DNA of 50,821 bases, taken from Candidatus Fermentithermobacillaceae bacterium. Its GTDB lineage: Bacteria > Bacillota > Sulfobacillia > Fermentithermobacillales > Fermentithermobacillaceae. The stretch's first letter is position 1, and each line of letters begins with the position of its first letter. The notes beneath the pieces are model-generated. The model saw only the letters and a list, made by a program, of their open reading frames with translations, was not told where the DNA came from and did not search any database. Of the stretch, positions 15,698 through 39,780 are shown piece after piece. The translations under genes were made by a program, and so were the position numbers. The stretch is from positions 1 through 50,821 of the forward strand of contig DUSU01000099.1 of the NCBI GenBank assembly GCA_012842425.1, read 5' to 3'.

Positions 15698-15748
15698 GTT
15701 TGTGTCATCACGAACTGTCTTCTCACCACCTACCGGAGGTGCCGCTAA

Positions 15749-16942: not shown

Positions 16943-17048
16943 ATTCTCTCTCGTGTTCCCTGAAGGAGTATTTCGGGAGACGCAGAATCAAGCATGAAGG
17001 ACTGAACAGGGGTATCAGGACAAACTTCGTTCTTTGGGGGAGTTACGG

Positions 17049-17774
17049 TTGGACCAGCCCATCCTTCGCACTGTTAACCTCCGGAAATCTTTCTTCCTGG
17101 GGCAGACGATCTACGCCGTCAACGATGTGAACCTGCAGGTTGACCAAGGCGAGTTTGTAGTGATCATGGGGCCGTCGGGAAGCGGAAAAAGCACTTTGCT
17201 TGCCCTTCTGGGAGGGTTGGACCGCCCTCAATCAGGCGATGTCATCCTGAGCGGGGAGAGGTACTCCAAACTGTCGGAGAACGGGCTCGCGAGGATCCGC
17301 CGGAACAAAGTCGGGTTCGTGTTCCAGTTCTTCAACCTGATACCTCACCTTACGGCTCTTGAGAATGTGATGCTTCCGATGAGGTTCGGAGGCAAGACAA
17401 AGCGCCAGATGGAAGACCGGGCCAAAGAGCTCTTGGATATCGTCGGTCTGAGCGCCCGAAAGGACCATAAGCCTCTGGAACTCTCAGGAGGCGAGCAGCA
17501 GCGGGTGGCTATCGCGAGGGCACTGGCCAATGAACCCGATGTGGTCCTGGCCGACGAGCCTACGGGAAACCTCGACCGGAAGACATCTTCTGAGATAGGA
17601 GAGATATTCCACAATCTAAACAGTGACAACGGGCAAACCTTCATCGTTGTGTCTCACGACCCGTCGCTCACTAAGTATGCCCACAGAGTCGTGAACATGT
17701 TGGACGGGCAGATCGTCGAGATAACCGGAGGAGGCATGGAGGGGGTCCCTCTCACTACTCCTGCATATCGCTAG
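17049..17774 (+). CDS. MacB/LolD/FtsE-type ABC transporter ATP-binding protein (ATPase-1)
   Basis: Walker [11 protein letters not shown]-loop [10 protein letters not shown], signature LSGGEQQR, Walker [10 protein letters not shown]-loop VVSHD. TTG 17049 follows GGGGGAG (17036-17042) by 6 nt. The ORF track starts at TTG 17034, which has no RBS. Confidence 0.9.
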
Positions 17775-17789
17775 GAAGGACTGCTTGAC

Positions 17790-19511
17790 ATGGTCAATAG
17801 CTACGTTCATTTGGACATCGGAAACACCGTTACCCGGGCAAAAGCCTGGAGCGCCTCTGCCCAAGGAGCACGGCTTCTGGCTTCCGCGACCATCCCCACG
17901 CCTCCGGCTCTCGAAAGCGTCGACCTCACCGAGAGCGCCTTCTTGGCGTACACGGAAGTGAAGGCCAAGGTTGAGGAGTCCGGGCAGAGGTTCGATCCTG
18001 AAGAAATCCTGGTCACGGTGAGCGCCGCCGGAGAGCCGAGAGTTGCGTGCGCCGGTGTGGTAAAGGGGATATCCGGAGAATCGGCCAAGCGCGCGGCTCT
18101 GGTCGCGGGGGCTACTGTGACCGATCTCCTCGCCGTAGATGACGGTCGCCTGGAATACCAGCGGATCCTCGACCTTAGAAGGCAGGACATCTCCATGGTG
18201 GTCATGGCCGGAGGTGTCGACGAAGAGATATTGGGACAAGGCCGTCACCAGCTCTTTAACGTGGCCAAGGTCGTTGCCGCAGGTCTGCCCGATCGAAGGG
18301 GGGCTGGGACTAAAGTTCCAGTCGTCTATGCAGCGTCGCTGGAAGGCCGCGAAGAAGTGCTCAAGATCTTCGGGGACTCAGTAGACGTGGTGTGGACCGA
18401 CAATGTGCGTTCCCGCCTCGAAGAGGAAAACCTAGAGCCCGCACGGGATGCCGTTCTGAACCTTTTCTCGACCGGGATCCGCCACGACCCACGGTTCACC
18501 GGGTTGGGCAGGTTTGGGGCTGCAAAGGTGCTTCCCACCGGACACTCAACCGGCCTCTCGGTCCGCAGGATGGCGGAAGTCCTTAAGCAAAACGTCTTAG
18601 TCATTTCGCTGGACGGAGATACCATCCAGGTATTTTCCCAGATCAGAGGGGTTTTTACCAGGACCGTGACTCCGGTAACGCGCGTACAGGCCAAAGATGT
18701 GACGAGATGGCTGCCGTCGGCGCGGTTGGGCGAGCGTCTCGACGACGTGCTGGCCAATTGGAAGGCCGCGCCGGGTACGCTTCCGGCATCGTGGGACGAC
18801 CTGGCCCTCTATCTGGCCATTCAGAAACAGGCGCTTCTTGAGGCCGTACGCGAGCACTCGGTAACCGCGATCGAACTACGCGGGATCCACAGACAGCGCC
18901 AGATCGGAGAGACCTTCCAGGTGAATGTCAAAGGAGGAGACACCCTGGTAAGGATGGAGCGAATCGGCACCGTGTGTATCACCGGTTTCTTGGCCGGGCT
19001 CCTTTCGCCGGCCGCGCTTCTCTCTCTCGTGCCGGATGCCTTTGAGCTTCACGGCGTGACAAAGGTTTACGTAGACAGGGAAGGAGTACTCGAGTCTCTG
19101 GCGGCCGTTCAAGAGGAGCCGGATCTTCTCCCCGAGTCGCTTCTTACACCTGCCGGTGTGATACTAAGTCCCGGCAGAAATGAAGAGCGCATCGGAACGA
19201 GGTGGGCCTTCATAAAGAAGGATTCCACACTCGAGCCCCTGCTTGTGAAGCCGGGAGAGATATGTCACATTCCCATACTGGCCCCGCATCCGGTGGTATT
19301 CGAACTGCATCCCTCAGGCAAGGGAGATGTGGGCGACGGAGAGGGCCGGAGATTCTCCGCTCAGGCGGTAGGTTTTGGTTCGGCCTACGTGGATGCCAGG
19401 GTGTTCGGCCGGAAAACCGATGACCGCTACCGTGAGAACAGGAACACGTACAGGGTGTTTGGAGTGTTCCCTGACGATGTTTTGAGCGGATGGGAAAGGG
19501 GGATGAAGTGA
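17790..19511 (+). CDS. GlmL/MutL-family (hydantoinase-A/reactivase-like ASKHA) protein, divergent paralog A
   Basis: 573 aa, colinear with the 605-aa paralog at 26006. Its nucleotide-binding motifs are degenerate (HLDIGNTVTRA; VMAGGVDEEI; ISLDGDTIQVFS). Confidence 0.7.
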   Translation: MVNSYVHLDIGNTVTRAKAWSASAQGARLLASATIPTPPALESVDLTESAFLAYTEVKAKVEESGQRFDPEEILVTVSAAGEPRVACAGVVKGISGESAKRAALVAGATVTDLLAVDDGRLEYQRILDLRRQDISMVVMAGGVDEEILGQGRHQLFNVAKVVAAGLPDRRGAGTKVPVVYAASLEGREEVLKIFGDSVDVVWTDNVRSRLEEENLEPARDAVLNLFSTGIRHDPRFTGLGRFGAAKVLPTGHSTGLSVRRMAEVLKQNVLVISLDGDTIQVFSQIRGVFTRTVTPVTRVQAKDVTRWLPSARLGERLDDVLANWKAAPGTLPASWDDLALYLAIQKQALLEAVREHSVTAIELRGIHRQRQIGETFQVNVKGGDTLVRMERIGTVCITGFLAGLLSPAALLSLVPDAFELHGVTKVYVDREGVLESLAAVQEEPDLLPESLLTPAGVILSPGRNEERIGTRWAFIKKDSTLEPLLVKPGEICHIPILAPHPVVFELHPSGKGDVGDGEGRRFSAQAVGFGSAYVDARVFGRKTDDRYRENRNTYRVFGVFPDDVLSGWERGMK

Positions 19512-20722
19512 TGGCCGTGTACGCTTTGAGCAGGCCGAGAGTCCTTAAGGACGCGCCGGTTAGGAGGCTCCGGATTTTCCCGTCCGTTGGCGAATCGATG
19601 GTATCCCCCGGGTCCAAGGTTGAGGCGGGTACTATACTCGGGAAGTATGCTTCCAGGCAGCGCCTTAGGTTTGTAAGGATGGAGACGGCGGGAGACAAGA
19701 TAGCCGCCACCTTGCTGGTTACTGAAGGCCAGAAAGTCAAACGCGGGGAAGTCCTCGGTTACTATTCCTACATGTTTGGCCTGGGTTACACGGAGTACAC
19801 GTCGCCCTGCGACGGCGAGATAGAGGTGATCAGCCACGCGACCGGACGTGTCGCCATAAAAGAGGAACCTTCCGAGATGGCGAGTCACCTCCCGGGGACA
19901 GTCGAGCACGTTGAGGAAGCCGTGGGCGTCCTGGTGCGTACCCGCGGCCATATGGTTGTGGGAGCCGCCGGAGCAGGCTATGCCAGGTCGGGGGCTCTTG
20001 TCAGGAAGGCCGGAGAGCCTACCGAGCAAGTGTCGCCTCAGAAGGTTAGCCCCCAAGATGCGGACCGTGTGGTCCTTGCAGGTTCTACAGTGACCAAAGA
20101 ACTCCTGGAGGCTTGCCTCAGGTCTCGCGTGGCGGCGATTATCGCGGGAAGCGCCCCCTTTAGCGTCGTGCAGTGGTACGAAAACCTTGTTCAGGAGCTG
20201 GACTGGGACGAATTCCTGGCAAGGTACTGGGCAAGGGAACTAAAGAAGAAAGACGCGGTCGTGCCGCGTCCCACCGAGATCGTCCCGGCTCTCGTGCTCA
20301 CCGAAGGGTATGGCAACATGCCTATGTCGGATGAGGCCTTCGAACTTCTCTCGTCTTTCGAGGGTAAGCCGGTTTTTGTAGACGGCGCGAGCCTTGCCGG
20401 TGTCGCGGCAGGCAGGTGGGATGCAGGCCCCTGTGTGATCATGCCCTTTGCGGGTGCCGGTGGCGAAGAAGCGACGGATGGCAGCGCGGGCAGCGGTTCG
20501 GGTGACCCGGCTGGGAGGCCCAAAGCCCTCAGAGAGCTGGCGCCGGGTGTGAGGGTCCGGGTTTATGGTCTCACCCGCGAGCCTGTAGAAGGGACTGTGG
20601 AAGGTCCGGCCCAAGAGGATTCTGCGCTTCCGGTTAGTATCCCGGTGAATTCCGTTCGTGTTGTCACCAAGGGCGGGGAGACGATTACCGTTCCGGCCGC
20701 GAACATTCAGGCCTTGGGGTGA
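19511..20722 (+). CDS. Uncharacterised cytoplasmic protein A: barrel-sandwich-hybrid (lipoyl-like) N-domain, central alpha/beta domain, KOW/SH3-like C-terminus
   Basis: ATG 19511 overlaps the upstream TGA (TGATG) and AAAGGGGGA lies 7 nt upstream. The ORF track starts at ATG 19490. Motifs shared with the paralog at 27825: LVTEGQ-V--G; YSPCDG(E/T)IE-IS; (T/M)EG(Y/F)G-MPM; G-RVR near the C-terminus. No signal peptide or TM helix. Confidence 0.75.
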   Translation: MAVYALSRPRVLKDAPVRRLRIFPSVGESMVSPGSKVEAGTILGKYASRQRLRFVRMETAGDKIAATLLVTEGQKVKRGEVLGYYSYMFGLGYTEYTSPCDGEIEVISHATGRVAIKEEPSEMASHLPGTVEHVEEAVGVLVRTRGHMVVGAAGAGYARSGALVRKAGEPTEQVSPQKVSPQDADRVVLAGSTVTKELLEACLRSRVAAIIAGSAPFSVVQWYENLVQELDWDEFLARYWARELKKKDAVVPRPTEIVPALVLTEGYGNMPMSDEAFELLSSFEGKPVFVDGASLAGVAAGRWDAGPCVIMPFAGAGGEEATDGSAGSGSGDPAGRPKALRELAPGVRVRVYGLTREPVEGTVEGPAQEDSALPVSIPVNSVRVVTKGGETITVPAANIQALG

Positions 20723-20821
20723 ACCGGAAAGCCCATAGGATCCTTTTTGAGGCGGGTATAGCGCGGCCTTGAGCATTCGTCCCCGGATCCGTCCGGCAAA
20801 GGGAAGAAAGGCGGTCTTCCC

Positions 20822-22909
20822 ATGAGGTGCCAAGATATCTTTCGCCAGAACCTCCGCCACTTAATGGCAGAGCACGGACTCAAAGTAAAGGACTTAGCCG
20901 ACATGGTCGGTCTAAGTCCTTCTTATCTTTCGCTCATACTCTCAGGCGAGCGGCAGAACCTCAGCGACTTCCACAAGGACGCCATAGCCCTGGCGCTTGG
21001 GACCACGGTCGCTGCACTGTACACACCGGGGGCCTTCGGTTTTCCCGCAGATGAAGCCGGTTTTCAGAGTGAGGAAGAAGGCCGGTTTGGAGCAATGACC
21101 GGCCGTCCGCTGAGGTCAGGCAGTGCTCCCAGACCGGGCCGGGAACTGGACCGGACGCTTGCACAGCGAAGGCGTGGAGCGCCTGAGCCCGGAACACGTG
21201 GGCCCGGTCGGGATATCGGTGCTTTCGAAGATTTCCTTAAAGCCTTGAACGTTAAGGATGACGCGCTTCTCGCCGCCTATTACAAAGAACTGAATGCCCT
21301 CTCGGATGACGAGATCGGGCGGTTCGGAGAGGTTATCCGCAGGACGCTTGCTTCATGGCAGGCAAGTTTGGCCGGCCAGCAGTCTGAGAAACCCGCCCCT
21401 GCGGACATATCCCTGACCGGGCCGCTCTCAGCCGAGGGCCGCCTCTTCGCCGGACTGATAGGTTGGCTTGCTCCTATCTTAGGAGACGTAGCGCTGGAGG
21501 TATTTGAGATAGCATTCGGATGGCCCAAAGGAAAGGCATTCCGCCTGGCGGGCGCTCTAGAGGCTGCCGGAGCGGTGATTGTGAGCCCTGCTGAGGAGGG
21601 GCGCGCAACGGTCAGTTTGGCTCCCCGTCTGGACCTGCGCCTTGCCCGGAACTGGGTACAGTCCCCGCTCAAAGAGGAGTGTCTGGGGCGGCTTGCCCGC
21701 CACCTGAGCTCTCTGCTTGAGGCCTCGCACGACGAAGAAGGCATGCGGCAAGCGTCGGAGGCAAAGGCCACCCCCTTCGGAGAGATCGGACCCGAGAAGA
21801 TAGGAGAGCTGTTCCTCGAGTCTCATGATTACCCGAGTGCCCGAGTCTGGTACGAGCGGGCGGCGGCGCAGTCCCTCGGCGCCCACTCCTGGAGGCTCGC
21901 CAAGGAGCATCTGGAAGTGGTGATGATGCTGGACGGCATCCTCGGGACTGACCCTGAGGAAAGAGCCCACACCTACCAGATGATAGCCGACGCGTGCCTG
22001 AACTTGGGCGATGTGGACGAAGCCCTCATGTACCAGGAGCACAACATTGGTTACTGGGAGAGCGCGGGCCGGAGGGCCGACGTGATAATGGGGCTTTTGA
22101 GAGCAGGCCTTATGCTGGCAAGACGCCGCGACTGGGCCAAAGCGAAAGAGTATCTCGAGCGCGCCATCAGCATCTCGTCCAATGACCTGGCGCTTCAGGC
22201 CCGGTCCCGGATCGGGTTGGCCTCTATTCTAGCGTCGAGTGGTTTGCTGAAGGCCGCGTTTGAAGAGCTTAACAAGGCGCTCGACATCGGGACCAGGCTC
22301 AATGAACCGCTCATCATCGTCCGGTCGCTCCTCGGACTGGGGCGTGCGTACCTTGCGCGAGGAGACTTGCGCAGGGCATCGGTCTCGCTCAACCAGGCGT
22401 TGTCCCTGGCCGAGAGGCGCGACCCCGTAGCGAGGATTTGGGTGGGCATCGAACTCGGCCGCCTGTCTCTGGAAGAAGGCGATTACGCCAGAGCCCGGCT
22501 GGAGCTCGAGACCGCGGCGGACCTTGCGAAAGTCGGCGGCAACCTCTCCGAGGAGCACCTTGCGAGATCGTACCTAGCAGCCTGTCTCAGCCTGATGCCG
22601 GAAGAGATCGACCTCCGCGAGGCGTGGGCTCAGGCAGACGCTGCCCGGAGGTTTTTCGAGAGCACGGGCGACTTAAGGCGGCTCGTCGTTGCCCAGGTGG
22701 CCTGCGCGCAGGTCTTCGCGGCGCTCGGAGACGAGGGCCTTGCGGTGAAGTACTTCGACCAGGCGGCGCGAGCGGGCAGGGACTCAGAAGACCCGGCCCT
22801 CGAGGCCTACGCATGCCGGGCCTATGGTGAATATCTGGAGAGACTCGGCGACGAGCTGGCTCCCGTAATGATCGAGCGGGCGAGGTGGGCCAGGGCCAAG
22901 CTGAAGTAG
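20822..22909 (+). CDS. XRE-family HTH transcription regulator with a long C-terminal TPR-like domain
   Basis: 695 aa. N-terminal Cro/C1-type HTH (FRQNLRHLMAEHGLKVKDLADMVGLSPSYLSLILSGERQ), an Arg/Pro/Gly-rich linker, then ~400 aa of helical repeats with a TPR-like A/L/Y/G pattern (YERAAAQ, ALMYQEHNIGYWE, AKEYLERAISI, LGRAYLARGDLRRA, YARARLELETAADLA, GLAVKYFDQAARAG). Confidence 0.8.
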   Translation: MRCQDIFRQNLRHLMAEHGLKVKDLADMVGLSPSYLSLILSGERQNLSDFHKDAIALALGTTVAALYTPGAFGFPADEAGFQSEEEGRFGAMTGRPLRSGSAPRPGRELDRTLAQRRRGAPEPGTRGPGRDIGAFEDFLKALNVKDDALLAAYYKELNALSDDEIGRFGEVIRRTLASWQASLAGQQSEKPAPADISLTGPLSAEGRLFAGLIGWLAPILGDVALEVFEIAFGWPKGKAFRLAGALEAAGAVIVSPAEEGRATVSLAPRLDLRLARNWVQSPLKEECLGRLARHLSSLLEASHDEEGMRQASEAKATPFGEIGPEKIGELFLESHDYPSARVWYERAAAQSLGAHSWRLAKEHLEVVMMLDGILGTDPEERAHTYQMIADACLNLGDVDEALMYQEHNIGYWESAGRRADVIMGLLRAGLMLARRRDWAKAKEYLERAISISSNDLALQARSRIGLASILASSGLLKAAFEELNKALDIGTRLNEPLIIVRSLLGLGRAYLARGDLRRASVSLNQALSLAERRDPVARIWVGIELGRLSLEEGDYARARLELETAADLAKVGGNLSEEHLARSYLAACLSLMPEEIDLREAWAQADAARRFFESTGDLRRLVVAQVACAQVFAALGDEGLAVKYFDQAARAGRDSEDPALEAYACRAYGEYLERLGDELAPVMIERARWARAKLK

Positions 22910-23186
22910 ACGCAATACCCTTTTTCGGAGTCCACCCAACATTCCGCTTAACACTGTTTCCGCAAATTGTATGACAATGCCATGACCTCGTCGTTCTGCG
23001 ATTTTCCTTACCTACCTGCGACACTCTCGCCTCTCAATATTCAGACGTATTGCTGGCGGCAATTGTGCAGCGCTGAAGTGATGACCAACGTCAGACCGCT
23101 TGCTCATAGCAAATCCGCTCCCGGTCAGGTCTCACCGGATCCCCATATAATAGTAACTGGGAGATGAAAGACGGAGGGAGTGTCTC

Positions 23187-24608
23187 ATGGATTTCATCCG
23201 CCTTGCTGTACGAGACGTTCGAAGGAACGGATCGCGTACCGGTCTCGCGATCGCAGCCACTGCCCTTGCCACTGTAATCCTCGTGCTCTCCAGGCTCGTC
23301 CCCCAAGGTTACATGAAGTACCTCGCCTACGCCGAACGTTCTTTCGCGGATGCAGACATTTTGGTGTGGAGCGCGCCTCAACACGTCTATTCAAAGGACA
23401 CATCGCCGCTGGAATGGAGAGATTGGTCGGGAGAAGAGTGGCAGTCTTTTGCAGGATACTTCTTGCCTGAACTCAAGTCCAAAGGATATGTCTCACCCGT
23501 GGACGCGCCCGGGTGGGGGCCGCTGGATGCCGGGAGACTGTCATCGATCATTTCTCAGGTCGAAGGCGTCGAAGAGGTTCTACCCTACCTGGCGTTTCCC
23601 TGCAAAGTGAGAGTGGGTGACGGCGAGTATGTGGACGCGATCCTCCGGGGCCGGGAGTTTCGCGGGCCAGACCGGCCTCTCGCAATGGACTGGCAGGTAA
23701 AGCGGGGTAGACCCTTGGGACCTCAGGACGAAAGATCACCTAACGCTCTTGTTCCTTTGGAACCTGAAGAGGAAGGTCCGCCGGGTGCCGTTGTCCCTCT
23801 GATTGCCGACGTCATAATACCCTACGCTCCGCATCTCGAAATGGAGATCTTGCTGCCGCGCCCTCAGGCCGGCACGGCACCATCTTGGGATAATCCGGTT
23901 TCCGCGAACCTCAGACAAGTCGGGGCATACAAGGTTGAGCTGGGAGTTGTCCCCGGCGAGTTCCCGGATGAGATTAGGCCCACCGGATACTGGAAGCGCC
24001 CTGAAGTCATAGTGAGCCGGACGACCTTCTTGGACCTTGTAAGCGGAGTGCTTCCCGAGCCTCCCGTGTATCAGATGCTGGTAAAGGTGGTCCGCCATTC
24101 AGACACAAAGGTCATCGTTGAGAGGCTCCGGCAGGCGCTCGGACCCGATTACGGGGTTTATGCGATCGCGGAACTTGTCTCAACCTCCGGCGACATGAGC
24201 GGGATAAGCCTCATCGTCCCCGACATGTCTTCGCTCATGAGATGGATGACCATCACCATGGCCGGCGGCATCGTTGCGGCATCCGTCTATGTCCTTCTGG
24301 CCCTCCAGACGCGAAAGATCGGGCTCCTCAGGGCCATAGGGGCGACATCCAAAGACATCATTTTGTATGCGTTGTCTGCCGTGGCATACACGACTCTTGC
24401 CGGTATCGCCATAGGTTTCGTGCTGGGCAAGATCATCACCTTAACCGTTATCGCAGCAACAGACTTTACCTTCTTCGAATGGCTTAAGATGGCGGGCTAC
24501 GACGCCCTCTTGTCCCTGTCGGGCATAGCGATCCCACTCACCTTGGGGCTGGCGGTCGCGATCTGGGCGTCTCGAATCCCCTGTGCGGAGGTGCTTAGAC
24601 GTGAGTGA
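23187..24608 (+). CDS. MacB/FtsX-type ABC permease with a large extracytoplasmic domain
   Basis: 473 aa. N-terminal LAVRDVRRNGSRTGLAIAATALATVILV (TM1), a ~300-aa hydrophilic domain, then a C-terminal FtsX domain (IGLLRAIGATSKDI plus three TM helices). GGAGGGAG lies 7 nt before the ATG. Confidence 0.85.
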   Translation: MDFIRLAVRDVRRNGSRTGLAIAATALATVILVLSRLVPQGYMKYLAYAERSFADADILVWSAPQHVYSKDTSPLEWRDWSGEEWQSFAGYFLPELKSKGYVSPVDAPGWGPLDAGRLSSIISQVEGVEEVLPYLAFPCKVRVGDGEYVDAILRGREFRGPDRPLAMDWQVKRGRPLGPQDERSPNALVPLEPEEEGPPGAVVPLIADVIIPYAPHLEMEILLPRPQAGTAPSWDNPVSANLRQVGAYKVELGVVPGEFPDEIRPTGYWKRPEVIVSRTTFLDLVSGVLPEPPVYQMLVKVVRHSDTKVIVERLRQALGPDYGVYAIAELVSTSGDMSGISLIVPDMSSLMRWMTITMAGGIVAASVYVLLALQTRKIGLLRAIGATSKDIILYALSAVAYTTLAGIAIGFVLGKIITLTVIAATDFTFFEWLKMAGYDALLSLSGIAIPLTLGLAVAIWASRIPCAEVLRRE

Positions 24609-25356
24609 TTGGCTTGGACCTATCTTGCACTGTCATGAGATCACCAAGCTCTACCCCGTGGCAGACGGGCTGTTTGCCCTAAAAAACGTAGAGCTCGAGG
24701 TGGAAGAGGGCCAGTTTGTGGTGATAACCGGGCCGTCAGGATCGGGGAAGACCACCCTCCTCAACATCCTCGGCGGGATCGACAGGCCGACTCACGGCGA
24801 GGTGATCCTCAAGGGGCGGAAGTACTCCCGGATGAGCGAGGACGACCTGGCTCTCCTCAGAAGGCGCGATCTGGGGATGGTCTTTCAGTTCTTCAACCTC
24901 ATACCGGAACTCACGGCCGCCGAAAACATAGGTTTTCCCATGAGGCTCCTCGGATGGGAGGAGCGAGCCGTGATAGATAGGCTGACTTATCTCATGGAAG
25001 CCGTGGGGATTTCGGGCAGGGCAGACCACTACCCGATGGAGCTCTCAGGTGGGGAACAGCAGCGCGTGGCGATCGCCAGGGCGCTGGCAGTGAAGCCCGC
25101 AGTTGTGCTTGCCGACGAGCCCACCGGCAACCTTGATTCGGCGAGGTCCAGGGAGATCATGGAGCTCTTCGCCAAGTTCAACAGAGAGGAGCGACAAACG
25201 TTCGTGGTGGTCACCCATGAGCGCGGGTTTGAGGAGTATGCCGATCTTGTCCTAAGGCTTTCAGACGGAAGAGTGGCGGAGAGGGTGGTGAAAAATGGTC
25301 AGCGTGGCGCGGAAGGAAAAACTGAGCGTCCCTCCTGTGCCGTTACACCTTCTTAA
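24601..25356 (+). CDS. MacB/LolD/FtsE-type ABC transporter ATP-binding protein (ATPase-2)
   Basis: [40 protein letters not shown]. About 60% identical by eye to ATPase-1. GTG 24601 follows GGAGGTG (24587-24593) by 7 nt and overlaps the upstream stop (GTGAGTGA). The ORF track starts at 24583. Confidence 0.9.
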   Translation: MSDWLGPILHCHEITKLYPVADGLFALKNVELEVEEGQFVVITGPSGSGKTTLLNILGGIDRPTHGEVILKGRKYSRMSEDDLALLRRRDLGMVFQFFNLIPELTAAENIGFPMRLLGWEERAVIDRLTYLMEAVGISGRADHYPMELSGGEQQRVAIARALAVKPAVVLADEPTGNLDSARSREIMELFAKFNREERQTFVVVTHERGFEEYADLVLRLSDGRVAERVVKNGQRGAEGKTERPSCAVTPS

Positions 25357-25987
25357 GACCATAGCGGTCAGGCGGATCGCGACCTACAAAGCGATTGTCG
25401 TAATCGTTTCGCTGTCAACCGCCCTGGCAGTGGCCGCATCTTTCGTCGTGACCGCGATGACGGAGACAATGATCTGGGCGATGGAGTCCAGGGTAGTGGA
25501 TAGGCAGGCCGACAGCGGGAGGCTTGCGGTGGCGATGGTCCGCCGGGCGAGCCGGGCGGCCTTTCTTCCCTGGCACGTTGTATCGCTGGCAGCGGCAGTT
25601 GTAGCCCTTTCCGGCATCGCTTGCGTGCTTTCCGTGAACTTTGTCGGCAGGAAGAAGAGCCTGGGGATCCTCAAGACGCTCGGTGGAACCACAAGAGACC
25701 TGACGAGGCTCCTTGCGCTTGAGGCTGCTTATACGGCCGCTTTCGGCCTCCCGCTCGGGCTACTGGGGGGCTCCGTCATCACGACAGCGTACTTGGGTAC
25801 ACAGGCTGTGAGTCCATGGTGTTTTGTTGTGTCCATCGTTTTCGGTTTGTTGTCGCTGGCGTCCGGCGTGTACCTACCGGTCAGGCTTGTGAGAAACGCC
25901 AGCTGCGCTCAACTCCTCCTGAACAGATCGGTTTACGCGTTCTCCAACCCGTCGTGCGCCCAGTGCGGTCTTTGCGGCGGATTCTGA
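25295..25987 (+). CDS. Small FtsX-type permease with a minimal extracytoplasmic loop and a Cys-rich C-terminal tail
   Basis: 230 aa with four predicted TM helices. FtsX signature SLGILKTLGGTTRDL. Only ~45 residues separate TM1 and TM2. C-terminal tail NPSCAQCGLCGGF. It overlaps the ATPase-2 end by 62 nt, and AGGGTGGTG lies 5 nt before the ATG. Confidence 0.75.
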   Translation: MVSVARKEKLSVPPVPLHLLKTIAVRRIATYKAIVVIVSLSTALAVAASFVVTAMTETMIWAMESRVVDRQADSGRLAVAMVRRASRAAFLPWHVVSLAAAVVALSGIACVLSVNFVGRKKSLGILKTLGGTTRDLTRLLALEAAYTAAFGLPLGLLGGSVITTAYLGTQAVSPWCFVVSIVFGLLSLASGVYLPVRLVRNASCAQLLLNRSVYAFSNPSCAQCGLCGGF

Positions 25988-26005
25988 TTATGGGGAGGGA
26001 GATGG

Positions 26006-27823
26006 ATGAGAAGGATTTTGGCGGCTGATGTAGGGAGTACGACGACCAAAGTCACGCTCTTTGTGAAGGATACCGGGGGTTGGAAACTGGCCGGGAAGAT
26101 GGTTGCGCCTACCACGGTAGAGGCCCCCGACCTGGATGTCATGATAGGTCTGCGAAATGCCCTGGCCAAGCTCGAAAGGCGGACGGGGATCAAGCTCCTG
26201 GACGGGGCGAGGCTCCTGGTGCCCGGCTCGGGAGAGGACGGGGCCGACATTTTTGTGGCGACCTCGAGCGCCGGCGGCGGCCTTCAGATGATGGTGACGG
26301 GGCTAGTTGGGACCATGACGGCCGAATCGGCCCACCGGGCGGCTCTCGGAGCGGGCGCAGTGGTGTCTGACGTCGTTTCTTTGGACGACAACCGCACCCT
26401 CATCGAGCGACTGGAAGCCATCAAGGCCATGAGGCCCGACATGATACTGCTGACGGGCGGCACCGATGGCGGAAACGTAAGCGACGTGGCGGCCATCGCC
26501 GAGTACATCTCCATGGCCCGCCCTGAACCGAGGTTCGGCAAGGACTTCAAGATCCCGGTCATCTACGCGGGCAACGTGGATGCCAGGGACATGGTGGACG
26601 AAGTCTTGAGAGAAGCCAATGACGTCACGTACACGGACAACATAAGGCCTGAACTGGAGAGCGAGCGTCTGGGCCCGGCCCGAGAGGCGATCAGCCGGAT
26701 ATTCTTGGAACACGTGATGATGCGGGCCCCGGGTTACGGGACGCTCGTGAACTGGACGGACGGCGCCGTGAGGCCCACACCCGTCGCAGTGGGCGAAGCC
26801 CTCAAGTACGCAGCGGCGTATTTCGGGACGAACGTCCTCGGAGTAGATATTGGAGGCGCCACAACCGATGTATTCTCGGTAATAGAGGGCCGGCTCTACC
26901 GCACGGTGTCCGCCAACCTCGGGATGTCCTACAGCATGGCCAACGTCCTCGCCGAGGCGAAGCCGGATTCGATCCTCAGGTGGCTCCCGTGGGAGTTCGA
27001 CGAGAACATCGTCCGCAACTGGCAGTTCAACAAGATGGTGAGGCCTACGACGCTTCCTCAGACCCTCGAGGACCTCATGCTGGAGCAGGCCGTGGCCACC
27101 GAGGCTTTGCGCCTCTCCCTGGAACACCACAAATCTCTTGTGAGGGGTCTCAAGGGCGTCCACCAGAGACGCACTGTGAGCGACGTATTCTTCCAGACCG
27201 GCACAGGCGAGACCCTGGTGAAGATGATGGAGACCGGAGTCATCATAGGTTCCGGCGGAGCTCTTTCACATGCCCCAAGGTGGGGGCAAGCGGCTCTCAT
27301 CATGATAAACGCTTTCCGGCCCGAAGGAGTGACCGAACTTTGGGTTGACAACCGGTTCCTCCTCCCGCACCTGGGGGTACTGCTCGAGACGGCGAGGGAA
27401 AAAGCGGATGAGGCGATACGGGAGATCCTAACCCGCGAGACCCTCGTCCCCGTGGGTACTGTGATAGCCCCCGTCGGGCCCGCCGCGCGGGATGGAAGCG
27501 TCATAGCCGAAGTCAGGGCCGGAGGGGAATCTCAGTCCGTTACCGCGGGCGACATGAGCGCTCTCAGTGTCCCCGCCGGAGGGTGCGACGTGGAGGTTAT
27601 CCCGAAGAAGGAGTACGACGTCGGAAACGGTCCCGGGGCGGCAGTCCGGTTTGCGGTAAAGAAAGGCATGCCGCACCTTATCTTGGACGGCAGGCATAGA
27701 CCGCTGGACCTCCACAGCGACTCCCGCAGGCGGATTGAGAAGATCAAGAGATGGCACAGGGCCCTGTCGGCGTATCCGGACCAGGATGCGGCGGTAGAGA
27801 CTCTCGCTAAGGAGGTGAGCTGA
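26006..27823 (+). CDS. GlmL/MutL-family ASKHA ATPase, canonical paralog B
   Basis: 605 aa. ADVGSTTTKV, SSAGGGLQMMV, AESAHRAALGAGA, LLTGGTDGGN and VDIGGATTDVFS closely follow what I recall of clostridial GlmL (DFGSTYTKV ... SSAAGGL ... GGTDGGN). It carries a ~140-aa beta-rich C-terminal extension shared with paralog A. Confidence 0.85.
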   Translation: MRRILAADVGSTTTKVTLFVKDTGGWKLAGKMVAPTTVEAPDLDVMIGLRNALAKLERRTGIKLLDGARLLVPGSGEDGADIFVATSSAGGGLQMMVTGLVGTMTAESAHRAALGAGAVVSDVVSLDDNRTLIERLEAIKAMRPDMILLTGGTDGGNVSDVAAIAEYISMARPEPRFGKDFKIPVIYAGNVDARDMVDEVLREANDVTYTDNIRPELESERLGPAREAISRIFLEHVMMRAPGYGTLVNWTDGAVRPTPVAVGEALKYAAAYFGTNVLGVDIGGATTDVFSVIEGRLYRTVSANLGMSYSMANVLAEAKPDSILRWLPWEFDENIVRNWQFNKMVRPTTLPQTLEDLMLEQAVATEALRLSLEHHKSLVRGLKGVHQRRTVSDVFFQTGTGETLVKMMETGVIIGSGGALSHAPRWGQAALIMINAFRPEGVTELWVDNRFLLPHLGVLLETAREKADEAIREILTRETLVPVGTVIAPVGPAARDGSVIAEVRAGGESQSVTAGDMSALSVPAGGCDVEVIPKKEYDVGNGPGAAVRFAVKKGMPHLILDGRHRPLDLHSDSRRRIEKIKRWHRALSAYPDQDAAVETLAKEVS

Positions 27824-27824
27824 A

Positions 27825-29228
27825 ATGGCCTTTAGTTCCAACCTGAGGCTCCTACAGAAAGCCTTTCTAAAGAAGACCCGGAAACTCTCGGTGCCCGGCG
27901 AGGTTCTCGTTACCGAGGGACAGACGGTAAACCCCGGCGACATAATCGCCAAGACGGATCTCGTCCCCGGCGGGCCGCGGGTCATAGATATCACCGCTGA
28001 AGTAGGGAAGAAGCTCACACCCGAGGAGATCGACAAGCTCATCACCAAGAAGCCGGGCGACAAGGTCACGAAGCAAGAAGTGCTGGGGGTATACCGGCGG
28101 GGTTTCTGGGAATCCGGCAGGACCATCTATTCTCCCTGCGACGGTACCATAGAGTACATCTCAAAGACCCAGAGGCGGATTATCATCCGAGAAGACCCCC
28201 GCTCGGCTGCCCCGATGTCGGTCGTGGCGGTCGCCTCCAAACTGTCCATATGGCCTTGGACCATCAGGATGTACACCACGGCCAACGAAGGAGACGAGGT
28301 GTTTGCCGGGCAGGTCCTGGCGGCTGCCTCCAACATTGGCCAAATGGACTACGTCTACTCACCCATGACGGGTGTGGTTGAGAGGATATGCCCGAAGAGC
28401 GGCACCATCACTATTGTGCGGCCCGTAAGGCCGAGCCAGGTCAAGGCCCACCTGGGCGGTGTAGTCACGCAAGTGGTGCCCGAGTACGGGGCGGTAGTCG
28501 AAGCCACCGGCTCGTACCTTGAGGGGGTATTTGGAATCGGAGGAGAGCGGTTCGGTGAGATCGTGCTCGCGACAGACGGGCCGGACGGTGACCTCGACGA
28601 GGCGGGAGTGGATGTATCCTACAAGGGCAAGGTCCTCGTCGCCGGAAGGTTTGTGTCCCTGGAAGCCCTGAAGAAGGCGCGGATGATCGGGGTTTCCGGC
28701 ATCATCACCGGAGGCATCAACAACCTGGACTTGGTGCAGTTCCTGGGCAAGGAGATCATTGTCGGCATCACGGGCCAGGAAGATACGGACCTCACCATCA
28801 TAGTAATGGAAGGCTTCGGCCCTATGCCTATGAACGAGAAAGCCTGGAACCTCTTGGCCTCGAAGGCGGGCAAAGTCGCTTCGATAGACGGGACCACCCA
28901 CATAAGGGCCGGAGCGGTGAGGCCTCAGGTGCTCATAAGCGACGGGGTGCTGGAGCCGGATCCATCGACCGCACCCTGGCCTGAGGAGCAAGTATCCCGG
29001 GCCGACCGCCCGCTCATAACCAACCTTGCCGTTGGCGACAGGGTGAGGTGCGTGAGACGGCCGTACTTCGGGCTCTGGGGCGTCGTCCTGGACCTTCCTT
29101 CTGACCCTCTTCCGGTCGAGTCCGGTTCGCACATGGAAGTGGCGCTGGTGAGGCTCGACGACGGCAGGGAAGTCATGATTGCCGAAGCAAACTTGGAGGT
29201 CTTTAGAGAGATAGACACTCCTGCTTAG
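27825..29228 (+). CDS. Uncharacterised cytoplasmic protein B: two barrel-sandwich-hybrid-like segments, central alpha/beta domain, KOW/SH3-like C-terminus
   Basis: 467 aa. The ATG comes 1 nt after the upstream TGA (TGAaATG) and AAGGAGGTG lies 7 nt upstream. Motifs: VTEGQTVNPGDIIA, YSPCDGTIEYIS, a second GDEVFAGQVL...SPMTGVV segment, MEGFGPMPM, and a C-terminal VGDRVRCV...VALVRLDDGREVMI. Confidence 0.75.
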   Translation: MAFSSNLRLLQKAFLKKTRKLSVPGEVLVTEGQTVNPGDIIAKTDLVPGGPRVIDITAEVGKKLTPEEIDKLITKKPGDKVTKQEVLGVYRRGFWESGRTIYSPCDGTIEYISKTQRRIIIREDPRSAAPMSVVAVASKLSIWPWTIRMYTTANEGDEVFAGQVLAAASNIGQMDYVYSPMTGVVERICPKSGTITIVRPVRPSQVKAHLGGVVTQVVPEYGAVVEATGSYLEGVFGIGGERFGEIVLATDGPDGDLDEAGVDVSYKGKVLVAGRFVSLEALKKARMIGVSGIITGGINNLDLVQFLGKEIIVGITGQEDTDLTIIVMEGFGPMPMNEKAWNLLASKAGKVASIDGTTHIRAGAVRPQVLISDGVLEPDPSTAPWPEEQVSRADRPLITNLAVGDRVRCVRRPYFGLWGVVLDLPSDPLPVESGSHMEVALVRLDDGREVMIAEANLEVFREIDTPA

Positions 29229-29519: not shown

Positions 29520-29787
29520 TGACAGATCCTCCTCGGAATCTTCTTTCAAGGTAGACGCCAATACATCCTTATGATACGCAGAGCTATTCTTCCGGTAACA
29601 AGGTACCCCGGATCCCGTCGGATCTAAGCGGGGCTAGGGCGAAACATTAGCGGGACCCAGGCGGCAGCTCAAGGGGTTATGTCACGGGGAAATTGTTACA
29701 CAATTTATCTATTTTGTGATCCTTCTTGCCTCTGAAGAATTGTGGTGATAAGTTGAACCTAGAAGATTATTTGGCGAGGTGTAATCC

Positions 29788-38253: not shown

Positions 38254-39084
38254 GTGTCAGAGTTTCTGCTTGCTGCTGAAGCCGTTCCACCCAAGCTGGG
38301 CATCTTCCGCCCCGTCAATAACACGGTCTTCTCGGTGCTCATAAGCATCGTCATGATCATCCTCGTGTACGTGATGATCAACAGGGCCAAGAAGGGCGAG
38401 AAGATTCCGGAGATCCGCAAGATCCCCGGCATCGAGGCGTTCGAGGAGGCCATCGGCCGCGCAACCGAGATGGGCAAGCCGGTCCACATGACCGACTACA
38501 GCACCGCTCTCGGTGACGACTCCACCTTCGCTTACTGGTCGTTCCTGGCGTACATCGCCAAGCAGTGCGCCCAGTACGACACCCGGTTCATCGCGACCGA
38601 CGCTAACTACCTGGTTAACGTCGTGAACCAGGAAATCGTTAAGCAGGCTTACTTGGAGGCCGGTAAGCCCGACGCCTACAACCCCGACGATATCAGGTTC
38701 ATCGCCGGTTCCCAGTTCGCTTGGGCGATGGGCGTCGCGGGTCTTGTCGCGCGCGAGAAGCCGGCGGCTCAGTTCCTGGTCGGTTACTTCTACGCTGAGT
38801 CTCTGATCCTCGCCGAGGCCGGAAACCTCGTGGGGGCCATCCAGGTAGCTGCTGCCAGCTCCCCTGCCCAGATCCCGTTCTTCGTCGCCGCTTGCGACTA
38901 CACCATGATTGGTGAGGAGCTTTACGCCGGCGCCGCCTATGTCTCCAGAGACCCGGTCATTATGGGTACTGTGGTTGCTCAGGACATAGTCCGCGTCTCA
39001 CTGTACGTGATCATCCTTCTCGGCGGCATCGTCCAGTGGCTGTCGCCGCAGAACAATTTCATCAGGAACTTCATCAACTTCTAG
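38254..39084 (+). CDS. Uncharacterised bitopic membrane protein (module A)
   Basis: 276 aa. GTG start 7 nt after AGGAGGTG (38239-38246). N-terminal TM (VFSVLISIVMIILVYVMI), a ~200-aa soluble domain, and a C-terminal TM (VSLYVIILLGGIVQWL). No family recognised. Confidence 0.8.
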   Translation: MSEFLLAAEAVPPKLGIFRPVNNTVFSVLISIVMIILVYVMINRAKKGEKIPEIRKIPGIEAFEEAIGRATEMGKPVHMTDYSTALGDDSTFAYWSFLAYIAKQCAQYDTRFIATDANYLVNVVNQEIVKQAYLEAGKPDAYNPDDIRFIAGSQFAWAMGVAGLVAREKPAAQFLVGYFYAESLILAEAGNLVGAIQVAAASSPAQIPFFVAACDYTMIGEELYAGAAYVSRDPVIMGTVVAQDIVRVSLYVIILLGGIVQWLSPQNNFIRNFINF

Positions 39085-39117: not shown

Positions 39118-39780
39118 GTGCAGTCGGTGAGAAAAGAGATCCCGTTCGCCCTAAGCTTGATCTTCGCGGCCTTCAGGTTCTGCCTTGAGGCCTTTGAGGG
39201 TCCTTACAACTATGCTCTGGCATCCGGTGACAAACTTCTGAACGCCATGTCATGGGCGATGACCTTCATGTCCTGTGGTGCGCTTTTCCTGGGAGCGCTG
39301 AACCTTATCCGGATTCACTCCAACAACATCCGGAGGAAGAGGCCATACTGGCAGTTCAGTGTCTACCTCCTGGCTATCCTAGTGTACCAGTCCATCATGG
39401 GTCTGGCGACGCACCATACGGCTCCCGTGTATGCCTGGCCGTATAACGCTATCTACCTCCCGTTGGACGCCACGATGTTCTCGCTCCTTGCGTTCTACAT
39501 CGCTTCGGCGGCCTACAGAGCTTTCCGAGTGAGGAACGTCGATGCGGCCGTCATGCTCACGTCAGCGTTCATTCTGATGCTCGGTAACGTTCCGATTGGT
39601 GAAGTTATCTGGGGTCCTGACAAGTTCTTGGGCGGCTTCGCCGGAATCAAGAACTGGATCCTGCGCGTTCCCAACGCCGCCGGCAACAGGGCCATTACTT
39701 TGGGTATCTTCTTGGGAATCATGGCCACTCAGAGCCGTATACTCCTCGGCATCGAGAGGCGTCACCTTGGTCAAGAATAG
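39118..39780 (+). CDS. Uncharacterised polytopic membrane protein (module B)
   Basis: 220 aa with ~6 hydrophobic segments. The GTG start follows GGAAGGAGG. The C-terminal AGNRAITLGIFLGIMATQSRILLG resembles the C-terminus of the fourth gene. Confidence 0.8.
   Translation: MQSVRKEIPFALSLIFAAFRFCLEAFEGPYNYALASGDKLLNAMSWAMTFMSCGALFLGALNLIRIHSNNIRRKRPYWQFSVYLLAILVYQSIMGLATHHTAPVYAWPYNAIYLPLDATMFSLLAFYIASAAYRAFRVRNVDAAVMLTSAFILMLGNVPIGEVIWGPDKFLGGFAGIKNWILRVPNAAGNRAITLGIFLGIMATQSRILLGIERRHLGQE

Follow-up and report, generated by a model that had tools for sequence, protein, structure and literature searches.

A widespread GlmL-like ATPase and barrel-sandwich/KOW protein pair, encoded with FtsX-type ABC genes in a small group of Bacillota

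In the 50,821-nucleotide stretch of Candidatus Fermentithermobacillaceae DNA analysed here (the window), genes for ABC ATPases and FtsX permeases are interleaved with two copies of a GlmL-like ATPase and of a barrel-sandwich/KOW protein, a family that we call AB (proteins A and B). Do these genes encode a single machine, and if so, of what kind? All nine co-directional ORFs are present in the order given by the initial annotation (Table 1), between guaB and M20 on the left and pspC, hpt and pur genes on the right. The junctions also read as it described them: the ATG of protein A overlaps the upstream stop (TGATG, 19509–19513), the ATPase-2 start overlaps the FtsX-L stop (GTGAGTGA, 24601–24608), and protein B begins at TGAaATG (27821–27827), with a Shine-Dalgarno sequence, AAGGAGG, upstream. 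FtsX-S and GlmL-like B (GlmL-B) are separated by 18 nt, GlmL-B and protein B by 1 nt, and the regulator and FtsX-L by 277 nt. The three proposed paralogue pairs are borne out by alignment: the ATPases are 54% identical (8e-87), the GlmL-like proteins 28% (1e-51) and proteins A and B 27% (1e-16). FtsX-L and FtsX-S show scarcely any resemblance in pairwise comparison.

Table 1 Genes of the nine-gene block and of the membrane module, in window coordinates
Gene	Position	Strand	Description
ATPase-1	17034..17774	+	MacB/LolD/FtsE-type ABC ATPase; without an adjacent permease of its own
GlmL-like A	17790..19511	+	Degenerate ASKHA paralogue
Protein A	19511..20722	+	Short-form AB (barrel-sandwich/KOW) protein, diverged
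Regulator	20822..22909	+	XRE-type HTH and MalT-like TPR regulator; belongs to the clade-specific insert
FtsX-L	23187..24608	+	FtsX-fold permease, ectodomain of ~310 residues
ATPase-2	24583/24601..25356	+	ABC ATPase of the conserved FtsX-ABC-FtsX trio
FtsX-S	25295..25987	+	Four-TM FtsX permease, minimal outer loop
GlmL-like B	26006..27823	+	Intact ASKHA ATPase, 600-aa subfamily, C-terminal extension of ~130 residues
Protein B	27825..29228	+	Long-form AB: two barrel-sandwich, small beta-barrel, alpha/beta and KOW domains
D	38254..39084	+	DUF6754 membrane protein (PF20539 4.1e-88)
D'	39118..39780	+	Polytopic membrane protein, no family; ~four TM segments (cluster HMM 7e-30)
m5	39817..40671	+	TM, ~220-residue alpha/beta domain, TM; no family (cluster HMM 1.6e-74)
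m4	40705..41307	+	Aromatic-rich polytopic membrane protein, no family (cluster HMM 1.2e-54)

Both GlmL-like proteins match PF13941 (8.8e-117 for GlmL-B and 1.4e-43 for GlmL-like A, or GlmL-A), and share this family and the ASKHA/hydantoinase-A-branch fold with GlmL/MutL of glutamate (methylaspartate) mutase and its ornithine-degradation relative. Glutamate mutase operons had been taken as the sole setting of GlmL; its relatives are not confined to them, however, since NCBIfam includes an ornithine-degradation protein related to GlmL. Are the proteins reactivating chaperones for a coenzyme-B12-dependent mutase, the role usually proposed for GlmL/MutL? Their PF13941 membership and their best NCBIfam matches, GlmL and the ornithine-degradation protein, would fit. 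However, GlmL-B and GlmL-A score only 230 and 78 bits against the GlmL equivalog cut-off of 475 bits, and fall short of the family cut-off as well; the proteins are ~140 residues longer, with the extra 130-residue C-terminal extension. As first noted, no B12 mutase gene is found among the window ORFs scanned; nor is any mutase, glutamate mutase included, or B12-binding gene found there or among the conserved neighbours at 96 loci. The constant partner is instead AB, to which these GlmL-like proteins are always paired or fused, often near DUF6754-type genes. The reactivation role is largely refuted, and we consider it most improbable.

By its sequence, GlmL-B is an intact ASKHA ATPase. Across an alignment of 70 GlmL-like sequences, 187 columns are at least 90% identical, and GlmL-B retains nearly all of them, the three ASKHA nucleotide motifs included, so that its nucleotide-binding motifs are intact as in GlmL/MutL. 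Full-length comparison of GlmL-B with archaeal and distant bacterial homologues gives ~49% identity, and a sequence search of the PDB found no relative. The copy in module A (GlmL-A and protein A) is different: GlmL-A has lost most of the 187 columns, including DIGGATTD, TSSAGGGLQM and SANLGMSYS, and its median identity to distant homologues is ~29%, compared with ~49% for GlmL-B. In protein A, 19 of the 24 invariant and 13 of the 29 near-invariant family columns are preserved, with F236, E241 and E458 lost. Module A is evolving faster than module B, and catalysis has probably been lost in this first GlmL/AB copy. The duplicated module of the initial annotation thus stands in that two GlmL/AB copies are present, but they are not equal duplicates, module A being degenerate.

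The barrel-sandwich and KOW content ascribed to proteins A and B is confirmed by domain and structure matches. For protein B (single-chain AF2 model, pLDDT 86; all our models are of single chains), Foldseek and PDB profile matches are confined to these domains, and neither a TM segment nor a signal peptide is predicted. The AB family comprises 1150 clusters at E<=1e-30; its invariant columns include no conserved His, Lys or Cys, and no catalytic fold was recognised in the alignment, Foldseek or PDB profile results. Profile and structure searches placed A and B in no characterised family, and no known relative of AB or of the membrane module described below was found in Pfam, NCBIfam, PADLOC, PDB sequences, Foldseek searches with two good models or the literature. 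None of the fold matches reveals a function, which counts against the proposal made below. In architecture, AB recalls NqrA/RnfC, soluble peripheral subunits of membrane redox pumps that dock on a multi-subunit membrane complex and carry an N-terminal barrel-sandwich followed by an alpha/beta domain: AB gives weak RnfC_N/NQRA_N matches and Foldseek matches to the RnfC N terminus. However, the likeness is confined to the barrel-sandwich domain, Fe-S and flavin motifs are lacking, and the membrane partners are unrelated to Rnf/Nqr subunits.

The association of AB with GlmL extends far beyond this organism. We sampled 80 species loci, spread over some 20 or more bacterial and archaeal phyla. Of the 80 AB genes with space for an upstream neighbour, 61 are immediately preceded by a co-directional GlmL gene; the remaining 19 have no adjacent GlmL. 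The pairing is present in at least 567 species of both domains, archaeal loci including Methanomethylicia, Bathyarchaeia and other Thermoproteota, and natural single-chain fusions occur (L023, 1007 aa; P0155; P0251). In these Bacillota the pair has several paralogues (L001 and L007 come from one genome; L009 has three pairs), which, like the 19 AB genes without a neighbouring GlmL, weighs against the proposal made below. The tightly coupled, dedicated ATPase–A/B pair postulated from the window is supported, recurs in other genomes, and is wider and older than was first seen: GlmL-AB is an ancient, strongly conserved and unstudied two-protein unit.

The usual conserved partners of this unit are four uncharacterised membrane proteins that the initial annotation missed, encoded here 9 kb downstream of the GlmL-B/protein B pair (38254–41307). 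Together with a frequently present small protein, s, they form a fixed gene order (s, D, D', m5, m4) that recurs beside the pair. D accompanies GlmL-AB in 35 of 85 loci, D' is found in 33 loci, always adjoining D, and m4 in 34; all four families, which are mutually unrelated, co-occur in 33–36 loci. The AF2 model of D (pLDDT 90) comprises a TM segment, a cytoplasmic Rossmann-like domain and a further TM segment, and DUF6754 has invariant acidic and Cys residues. D has no specific PDB relative (best E 8e-3), and the top matches of its model are generic Rossmann folds (E ~1e-2). D', m5 and m4 have no Pfam or NCBIfam match, and m5 has no PDB match. TM segments are predicted at both ends of m5, and its charge distribution indicates that both termini are intracellular; its domain would then face outward. 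Among 44 loci with full flanks, the module lies within 10 kb of the pair in 20 and is absent from the flanks in 24. Since pair and module are often unlinked, a looser relationship, such as that of an enzyme and a transporter, is possible.

Such a relationship is at the heart of one alternative, in which GlmL-AB resembles hydantoinase or acetone carboxylase in being a soluble enzyme that depends on ATP, the GlmL-like protein being its ATP-using subunit and AB its second subunit, and the DUF6754 module, joined in this clade by the ABC unit, does no more than import or export substrate or product. Hydantoinase, oxoprolinase and acetone carboxylase (HyuA/HyuB) are likewise built from an ASKHA subunit of this branch, which uses ATP, and a second, larger subunit. 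PF13941 lies in the hydantoinase-A branch, with sub-threshold Hydantoinase_A matches besides, strong sequence conservation is typical of enzymes, the pair is frequently not linked to membrane genes, m5 resembles a tethered binding domain, D' and m4 might together make a permease, and the neighbours of the pair in this clade are guaB and hpt/pur. This purine context is, however, limited to one clade, and no metabolic gene is conserved around the pair across phyla. The Hydantoinase_A match is below threshold (20.1 against 22.9 bits), no HyuB-like partner was found, and AB, with a wholly different domain make-up, has neither a recognisable catalytic fold nor an invariant His, Lys or Cys. FtsX-type ABC systems, moreover, are not classical solute transporters (PMC5985334, PMC12646458). 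We consider a soluble enzyme unlikely. The GlmL relatives of the hydantoinase branch are, for their part, soluble enzymes or chaperones, not membrane motors, an observation that runs against our own proposal.

What, then, of the ABC genes? Both ATPases match ABC_tran in Pfam (ATPase-1, 2.3e-36; ATPase-2, 4.8e-34). Both ATPases are closest to LolD, FtsE and MacB, which are the best NCBIfam matches of ATPase-1, all under the equivalog cut-offs. FtsX-L matches the FtsX C-terminal domain, with a predicted TM segment at 20–38 and a TM cluster at 355–459; FtsX-S matches FtsX (2.2e-09), with TM segments predicted at 34–52, 95–113, 139–157 and 176–194. The regulator matches HTH_31, HTH_3, TPR_12 and TPR_MalT. 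Among type VII ABC systems (MacB, LolCDE, FtsEX, YbbAP), the FtsX-fold proteins FtsX-L, with its large ectodomain, and FtsX-S recall the LolC/LolE heterodimer in their arrangement. Unlike those systems, the block encodes neither an adaptor in the periplasm nor a hydrolase activator or carrier; in their place stand a cytoplasmic ASKHA ATPase and AB, an orphan second ATPase and the degenerate module A.

Alternatively, the ABC/FtsX genes and the regulator might make up a module of their own, serving for instance in resistance to, or export of, peptides or bacteriocins, and its insertion beside the pair would be without functional meaning. HTH-TPR regulators often control peptide-responsive export systems, and the 277-nt gap sets the regulator apart from FtsX-L. 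The seven genes from ATPase-1 to FtsX-S are also missing in close relatives (48–56% protein B identity), in which the corresponding guaB/pur site holds GlmL-B and protein B alone; the synteny guaB ... pspC-hpt-pur-QueT-NusG_II-D is common to loci with and without them. FtsX lies near AB in just 3 of 80 species loci, so the linkage to ABC genes proposed at first is not general. It does hold in a small Bacillota group, in two genomic contexts: the five-gene unit FtsX-ABC-FtsX-GlmL-AB is intact in an unrelated context (L094/L095, where the FtsX-S orthologue is longer, ~407 aa), and again in L004 and L009. The FtsX-L subfamily, of only 28 clusters, is almost never without the pair, 9 of 10 sampled contexts carrying the five-gene unit. 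The insert also brings along a GlmL/AB copy, placed between ATPase-1 and the regulator, and its junctions are tight or overlapping. ATPase-2 is its most conserved gene (69–93% identity to orthologues), ATPase-1 occurs only in loci with the full nine-gene block, and the regulator was found in all the full-block loci that we sampled (L003, L086, L088, L090, L096). We find chance adjacency of an independent module distinctly unlikely.

To our knowledge, FtsEX is the only FtsX-type ABC complex described as acting together with a cytoplasmic actin-fold ATPase, namely FtsA. This precedent (PMC7343993) speaks for our proposal, and also for an alternative in which the GlmL-like protein resembles FtsA, MreB or PilM: it would form an actin-fold scaffold or polymer at the membrane, organise the membrane proteins and be regulated by FtsX/ABC as FtsEX regulates FtsA. 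The ASKHA fold, a surface-wide conservation typical of polymerising or multi-partner proteins, and the encoding beside bitopic and polytopic membrane proteins are consistent with a scaffold, and the most distant FtsX-L relative adjoins ftsE-ftsX and a PcsB-like M23 peptidase. That relative is, however, the only link to division genes, and FtsA itself, an FtsZ-binding protein from another ASKHA branch, lacks any AB-like partner. Sequence prediction gave no amphipathic membrane-targeting helix in GlmL-B, and the archaeal and bacterial hosts differ greatly in division and wall machineries. We know of no member of the GlmL/hydantoinase branch that polymerises. A scaffold thus seems improbable.

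We propose instead, with a probability of about 0.5, that GlmL-AB works in the cytoplasm as an ATP-driven unit docking on membrane complexes. The data above show composition, conservation, fusions, synteny, topology and the decay of module A; docking, energy coupling and output are inferred. Its core would be a complex of the 600-aa GlmL-like ASKHA ATPase and its AB partner (barrel-sandwich, alpha/beta and KOW domains), encoded in most lineages with a dedicated membrane module made up of DUF6754, the polytopic D' and m4, and m5 with its outward-facing domain. GlmL-B would hydrolyse ATP, and AB would couple the ATP cycle to the cytoplasmic faces of the DUF6754 module generally and of the FtsX/ABC complex in this clade, these membrane complexes performing an extracytoplasmic or transport task. 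In the small Bacillota group, a seven-gene insert may have entered immediately upstream of GlmL-B and protein B, the ancestral pair, bringing a heterodimeric FtsX-type ABC unit (FtsX-L/ATPase-2/FtsX-S), a second ATPase, the XRE-TPR regulator and module A, the last perhaps a non-catalytic partner or regulator. It is about an even bet that the nine-gene block elaborates, in this one clade, a system that is widespread but uncharacterised.

The block comprises nine co-directional genes flanked by guaB/M20 and pspC/hpt-pur, in the order ATPase-1, GlmL-A, protein A, an XRE-TPR regulator, the large FtsX permease (FtsX-L), ATPase-2, the small FtsX permease (FtsX-S), GlmL-B and protein B. The window ORFs agree with the initial annotation on this layout and on its three tightest junctions: the ATG of protein A (19511) overlaps the GlmL-A stop within TGATG, the GTG of ATPase-2 overlaps the FtsX-L stop, and the ATG of protein B (27825), with AAGGAGG in front, lies 1 nt past the GlmL-B stop. 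The other gaps measure 15 nt (ATPase-1/GlmL-A), 99 nt (protein A/regulator), 277 nt (regulator/FtsX-L) and 18 nt (FtsX-S/GlmL-B). Pfam assigns ABC_tran to both ATPases, FtsX to both permeases, HTH and TPR domains to the regulator, and MutL/GlmL (PF13941) to the two GlmL-like ASKHA ATPases, GlmL-A (1.4e-43) and GlmL-B (8.8e-117). The three paralogue pairs recognized earlier are confirmed, with identities of 54% for the ATPases, 28% for the GlmL-like proteins (1e-51) and 27% for proteins A and B (1e-16). FtsX-L and FtsX-S show hardly any resemblance. No inverted repeats were found in the three intergenic regions scanned, no Rfam family scored above threshold across the whole 50.8 kb window, and Rfam called no purine riboswitch upstream of hpt and the pur operon (29562–29787). 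Pfam and NCBIfam searches of all nine proteins name no family for proteins A and B. An anti-phage defence system was considered and rejected: PADLOC matches are generic ABC/AAA and HTH only, with none for the GlmL-like proteins, proteins A and B or the FtsX proteins.

Proteins A and B belong to a barrel-sandwich/KOW family, here termed AB, and neither scores above any Pfam or NCBIfam threshold over the whole protein. The AlphaFold model of protein B, built on a 40-sequence alignment (mean pLDDT 86), divides into five domains (see table). Foldseek against the PDB and a PDB profile search gave matches confined to its barrel-sandwich parts (RNA polymerase Si3, NusG domain II, the RnfC N terminus and lipoyl/biotinyl domains) and its KOW part (Spt5/NusG, 5e-5 in the profile search); neither search found a whole-protein relative, and in Foldseek the whole-chain TM-scores were ~0.1. 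A C-terminal KOW is common to AB and NusG/Spt5, whereas an NGN domain, or a match to one, was not found in AB. The barrel-sandwich fold of biotinyl and lipoyl carriers is present, but their modifiable hairpin lysine is not kept: among 40 homologues the position of K43 in the protein B hairpin is occupied by K, R, E, T or A, and the family has no invariant Lys. A biotin/lipoyl carrier role was rejected on this ground. A PTS EIIA-like phosphorelay was set aside with no His among the invariant or near-invariant AB columns, and a periplasmic adaptor of the HlyD/YknX type with no membrane anchor and only faint BSH_YknX/BSH_RND matches. Neither protein A nor protein B has a TM segment, hydrophobic segment or signal peptide. 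Because they have no membrane anchor, both are predicted to be cytoplasmic, and they fall outside every characterised family.

GlmL-B has the PF13941 domain of canonical GlmL, the methylaspartate mutase accessory protein, and its ASKHA phosphate-1, phosphate-2 and adenosine motifs are intact (DVGSTTTK, DIGGATTD and GSGG). The GlmL-like subfamily nevertheless differs from canonical GlmL in a C-terminal extension of ~130 residues, in its score and in its context. GlmL-B reaches 230 bits against NCBIfam NF040745, for which the equivalog cut-off is 475 (GlmL-A, 78 bits), and both proteins fall below the TIGR01319 subfamily cut-off of 204 as well (176.5 bits for GlmL-B, 70.6 bits for GlmL-A). A B12 mutase adjoins the GlmL-like gene in no context examined: the scanned window ORFs contain no glmS/glmE or aminomutase beside these genes, as first noted, and none occurs among the conserved neighbour clusters or Pfam-annotated contexts of the related loci examined. 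A role as B12 reactivase, for which the shared domain would speak and the missing mutase against, is largely excluded. A rival reading takes the pair as a soluble enzyme of the hydantoinase type that has transporters dedicated to it, which would accommodate the ABC and FtsX genes; against it, no HyuB-like (Hydantoinase_B) partner was found among the neighbours. Assignment of GlmL-B as a hydantoinase or oxoprolinase was itself rejected (Hydantoinase_A, 20.1 bits against a cut-off of 22.9). The subfamily is under unusually strong constraint: 187 columns are at least 90% identical among 70 sequences, and along its entire length GlmL-B shares ~49% identity with members from archaea and from distant bacteria. 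A sequence search of the PDB with GlmL-B found no relative. With all its ASKHA nucleotide motifs, GlmL-B should hydrolyse ATP.

AB relatives occur in at least 567 species (scan of one genome per species), and an exhaustive profile search gave 1150 AB clusters at 50% identity (E≤1e-30). A sample of 80 loci spans Bacteria (Bacillota, Nitrospirota, Planctomycetota including Brocadia and Scalindua, Armatimonadota, Cloacimonadota, Latescibacterota, Elusimicrobiota, WOR-3, Eisenbacteria, Zixibacteria, Calditrichota and others) and Archaea (Methanomethylicia/Culexarchaeia, Bathyarchaeia and other Thermoproteota). The expected pairing with a GlmL-like gene recurs in these genomes, a 600-aa GlmL-like gene lying directly upstream on the same strand of 61 of the 80 AB genes with upstream room. 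In addition, single-chain GlmL-like/AB fusions of ~1000 aa exist: P0155, P0251 and one of 1007 aa in L023 (13773–16793, minus strand), which stops short of the KOW domain. These natural fusions are strong evidence, at the level of sequence, that the GlmL-like protein and AB work as one complex, AB probably being an obligate partner that is fused in some species. Plasmid and phage collections searched by tblastn contain no match to protein B, which speaks against the pair being cargo of mobile elements; a metagenome scan with protein B as query returned 4 loci only. Single Bacillota genomes bear three pairs (L001 and L007, both on CP062796.1; L009), one at the guaB/pur site and a tandem double pair elsewhere, arranged as long-form AB, a small protein (s) and short-form AB. 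The window's genome may accordingly hold further pairs beyond the 50 kb seen here.

Clustering of all ORFs in the loci revealed a fixed neighbour order, [c7]-s-GlmL-AB-D-D'-m5-m4, in which the D to m4 block may precede or follow the pair. The s protein is 110–130 aa long and D is DUF6754; of the others, D' and m4 are polytopic, and both ends of m5 form a TM helix. The window carries all four genes of this membrane module (see table), and D exceeds the Pfam gathering threshold for PF20539, 27 bits. Of the 44 loci with full flanks, 20 have the module no more than 10 kb from AB. Paralogy among the four membrane proteins was rejected by hhalign, Pfam and NCBIfam name no family for D', m5 or m4, and PDB searches gave no relative for the m5 or DUF6754 profiles and only domain-level ones for the AB profile. 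In the model of D (pLDDT 90), a Rossmann-like domain of six strands stands between two TM helices, one at each terminus; Foldseek matched the model to generic Rossmann folds only (E≥8e-3). From the charge distribution, we infer that the D domain, at residues ~45–240, faces the cytoplasm and the m5 domain the outside. Literature searches found no relevant published work on DUF6754, PF13941 or GlmL-like proteins, and among the matches listed AB and DUF6754 homologues are named just 'hypothetical' or 'DUF6754 domain-containing'.

Domains of protein B (residues) and features of the window (nucleotides)
Feature	Position	Description	Evidence
Protein B domain 1	~9–123	barrel-sandwich	AlphaFold model
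Protein B domain 2	~125–205	inserted second barrel-sandwich; not in the common 375-aa form of the AB family	
Protein B domain 3	after domain 2	five-stranded beta-barrel	AlphaFold model
Protein B domain 4	~266–375	beta-alpha-beta	AlphaFold model
Protein B domain 5	C-terminal	KOW-like barrel	AlphaFold model
Surface protein	239–2947	left flank; 902 aa, three SLH domains, beta-helix, InlB-type repeat	
Chemotaxis cluster	4833–10621	CheA, CheX-like, CheB, CheR	
DUF4015 protein	11240–12844		
QueT	36970–37470	transporter	
NusG_II-domain protein	37538–38005 (minus strand)	small, membrane-anchored	6.6e-22
D (DUF6754)	38254–39084	membrane module	cluster profile 2.5e-82; PF20539 295 bits, 4.1e-88
D'	39118–39780	membrane module	cluster profile 7e-30
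m5	39817–40671	membrane module	cluster profile 1.6e-74
m4	40705–41307	membrane module	cluster profile 1.2e-54
Two adjacent ORFs	41480–42526 (minus strand)	209 and 138 aa, between m4 and the M23 gene	Pfam/NCBIfam none
M23 peptidase, then M50 site-2 protease	42636–44354	M23 membrane-anchored; SpoIVFA/SpoIVFB-like; 1.3 kb downstream of m4	M23, 1.6e-31
Radical-SAM, DUF2344 and RNase E/G genes	44480–49334		

Several further features accompany the cassette. In diderms (L012, L017, L028, L040 and L081), DUF6754 bears a signal peptide, together with an additional domain of 150–250 residues at its N terminus that has a conserved DTPND.GG.I.L.W motif, a domain missing from Bacillota and archaeal forms. 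Relatives without the ABC genes carry a conserved two-TM protein of ~95 aa right after protein B (L084:11392–11670, L091:3132–3419 and L092:11404–11703); its identification as s was rejected, as it is a separate protein, and the window does not contain it. Shortly after the cassette, loci of unrelated phyla encode large TPR proteins (L081–L083, ~15200–17500; L061:1165–4728), one such recurrent protein being fused to a guanylate-cyclase domain (Marinimicrobia) and another occurring in a Cloacimonadota locus; they echo the XRE-TPR regulator of the window. L001, L003, L086, L090 and L092 all have QueT and the NusG_II protein where the window has them, between purD and the DUF6754 module, and the che-DUF4015-guaB order is common to L084 and L092.

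Both ABC ATPases contain GPSGSGK(S/T)T, LSGGEQQR and [10 protein letters not shown]; their top NCBIfam matches are LolD, FtsE and MacB, with all equivalog cut-offs missed. FtsX-L has TM1 at residues 20–38, an ectodomain of ~310 residues and a TM cluster at 355–459, and FtsX-S has four TM segments and an outer loop of just ~40 residues. The block has the ABC ATPase motifs and FtsX-fold permeases of type VII ABC systems (MacB/FtsX/LolCDE), but no gene for any of their described extracytoplasmic partners (adaptor, hydrolase activator or carrier). Gene order at the site is common to the relatives: guaB(-) ... GlmL-B, protein B, pspC(-), hpt, purE-D, QueT, NusG_II(-), D, D', m5, m4. The window has all seven genes from ATPase-1 to FtsX-S, as do L086, L090, L096, L088 and L003 (protein B identity 89%, 72%, 60%, 57% and 55%), whereas L091 (56%), L001/L092 (53%), L002 (49%) and L084 (48%) lack them. 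As they are present in some relatives and missing from others at the same site, the seven genes are, judged by gene order, a clade-specific insert before an ancestral pair. In L086 (5353–6781), which is the nearest metagenomic relative, FtsX-L is split into two overlapping ORFs by a frameshift or an assembly error.

Such an insert would agree with a rival explanation, in which an unrelated ABC module landed here by coincidence. The wider distribution of FtsX-L argues otherwise: its subfamily forms only 28 clusters among 5.8 billion proteins, FtsX-ABC-FtsX-GlmL-AB occurs in nine of the ten contexts examined, and L094/L095 bear this five-gene unit in an unrelated context. On these grounds, the FtsX link does not appear accidental. 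L004 also bears the unit, and in L009 the contig end truncates an FtsX gene that stands immediately before a GlmL-AB pair; c7-D-D'-m5-m4 and two further pairs come next. The ABC linkage first claimed is real within a small group of Bacillota but does not extend to the pair at large. The most distant FtsX-L member, in L093 (8001–13410; 31% identity), is without the pair; it belongs to an FtsX-FtsX pair without its own ATPase, head-to-head with a PcsB-like M23 peptidase gene, ftsX and ftsE. This context hints that the FtsX-L subfamily descended from wall-hydrolase-controlling systems.

The two GlmL/AB modules of the block are not equivalent. The duplication noted at first is genuine as regards the paralogue copies, but module A (GlmL-A and protein A) is degenerate: in GlmL-A the phosphate-2 motif has changed from DIGGATTD to SLDGDTIQ, and the TSSAGGGLQM motif and SANLGMSYS segment are also gone. 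Protein A retains 19 of 24 invariant and 13 of 29 near-invariant AB columns, having lost F236, E241 and E458. Module A, the regulator and the permeases have evolved faster than module B (GlmL-B and protein B) and ATPase-2. Given the motif loss and the faster evolution, we infer a non-catalytic role for module A, either regulatory or structural.

The recurring neighbours would expose the D domain to the cytoplasm and the m5 domain outside. On that ground we favour a mechanism in which the GlmL-like protein and AB make up a cytoplasmic unit, driven by ATP, that would dock on membrane complexes and either power or control a transmembrane event, which could be transport, envelope assembly or signalling. 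In the window's clade, a like unit would be wired to a heterodimeric FtsX-type ABC complex, and the duplicated sets suggest a pseudo-symmetric hetero-complex, which could contain two ATPases, two permeases and an active and a degenerate pair. Members of the type VII ABC family transmit force outward and do not carry solutes through the membrane (PMC5985334, PMC12646458), and such a partnership has a precedent in FtsEX and the actin-fold FtsA (PMC7343993). The rival reading of the GlmL-like proteins as an actin-like scaffold could draw on the same precedent. Characterised relatives appear to exist solely for the GlmL-like proteins, distant as they are from characterised GlmL, and for the ABC/FtsX parts, and we regard the cassette as a system of a new kind. 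In its fullest form, the docking-unit reading makes the GlmL-like protein and AB the cytoplasmic engine of an ancient, hitherto unrecognised membrane machine of Bacteria and Archaea, with DUF6754 and three unnamed families as its membrane part; it would be the first membrane complex run by an ASKHA rather than a P-loop ATPase, coupled also to a type VII ABC mechanotransmitter in the window's Bacillota clade. We give this tentative proposal a probability of roughly 0.3.

The cassette of about seven genes occurs in hundreds of species of some twenty or more phyla in both prokaryotic domains, and includes one of the best-conserved proteins of unknown role found here (archaeal and Bacillota forms are ~49% identical). 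None of its members is characterised, none has a solved structure, and the literature searched does not mention it. Should the cassette prove to be a membrane machine driven by ATP, energy coupling at the cell membrane would gain a new class, and DUF6754, with its thousands of members, a function. The local version is a natural experiment, in which a catalytic and a degenerate pair stand beside two ABC ATPases and two FtsX permeases, and its link to the better-understood type VII ABC family offers a handle for experiments.
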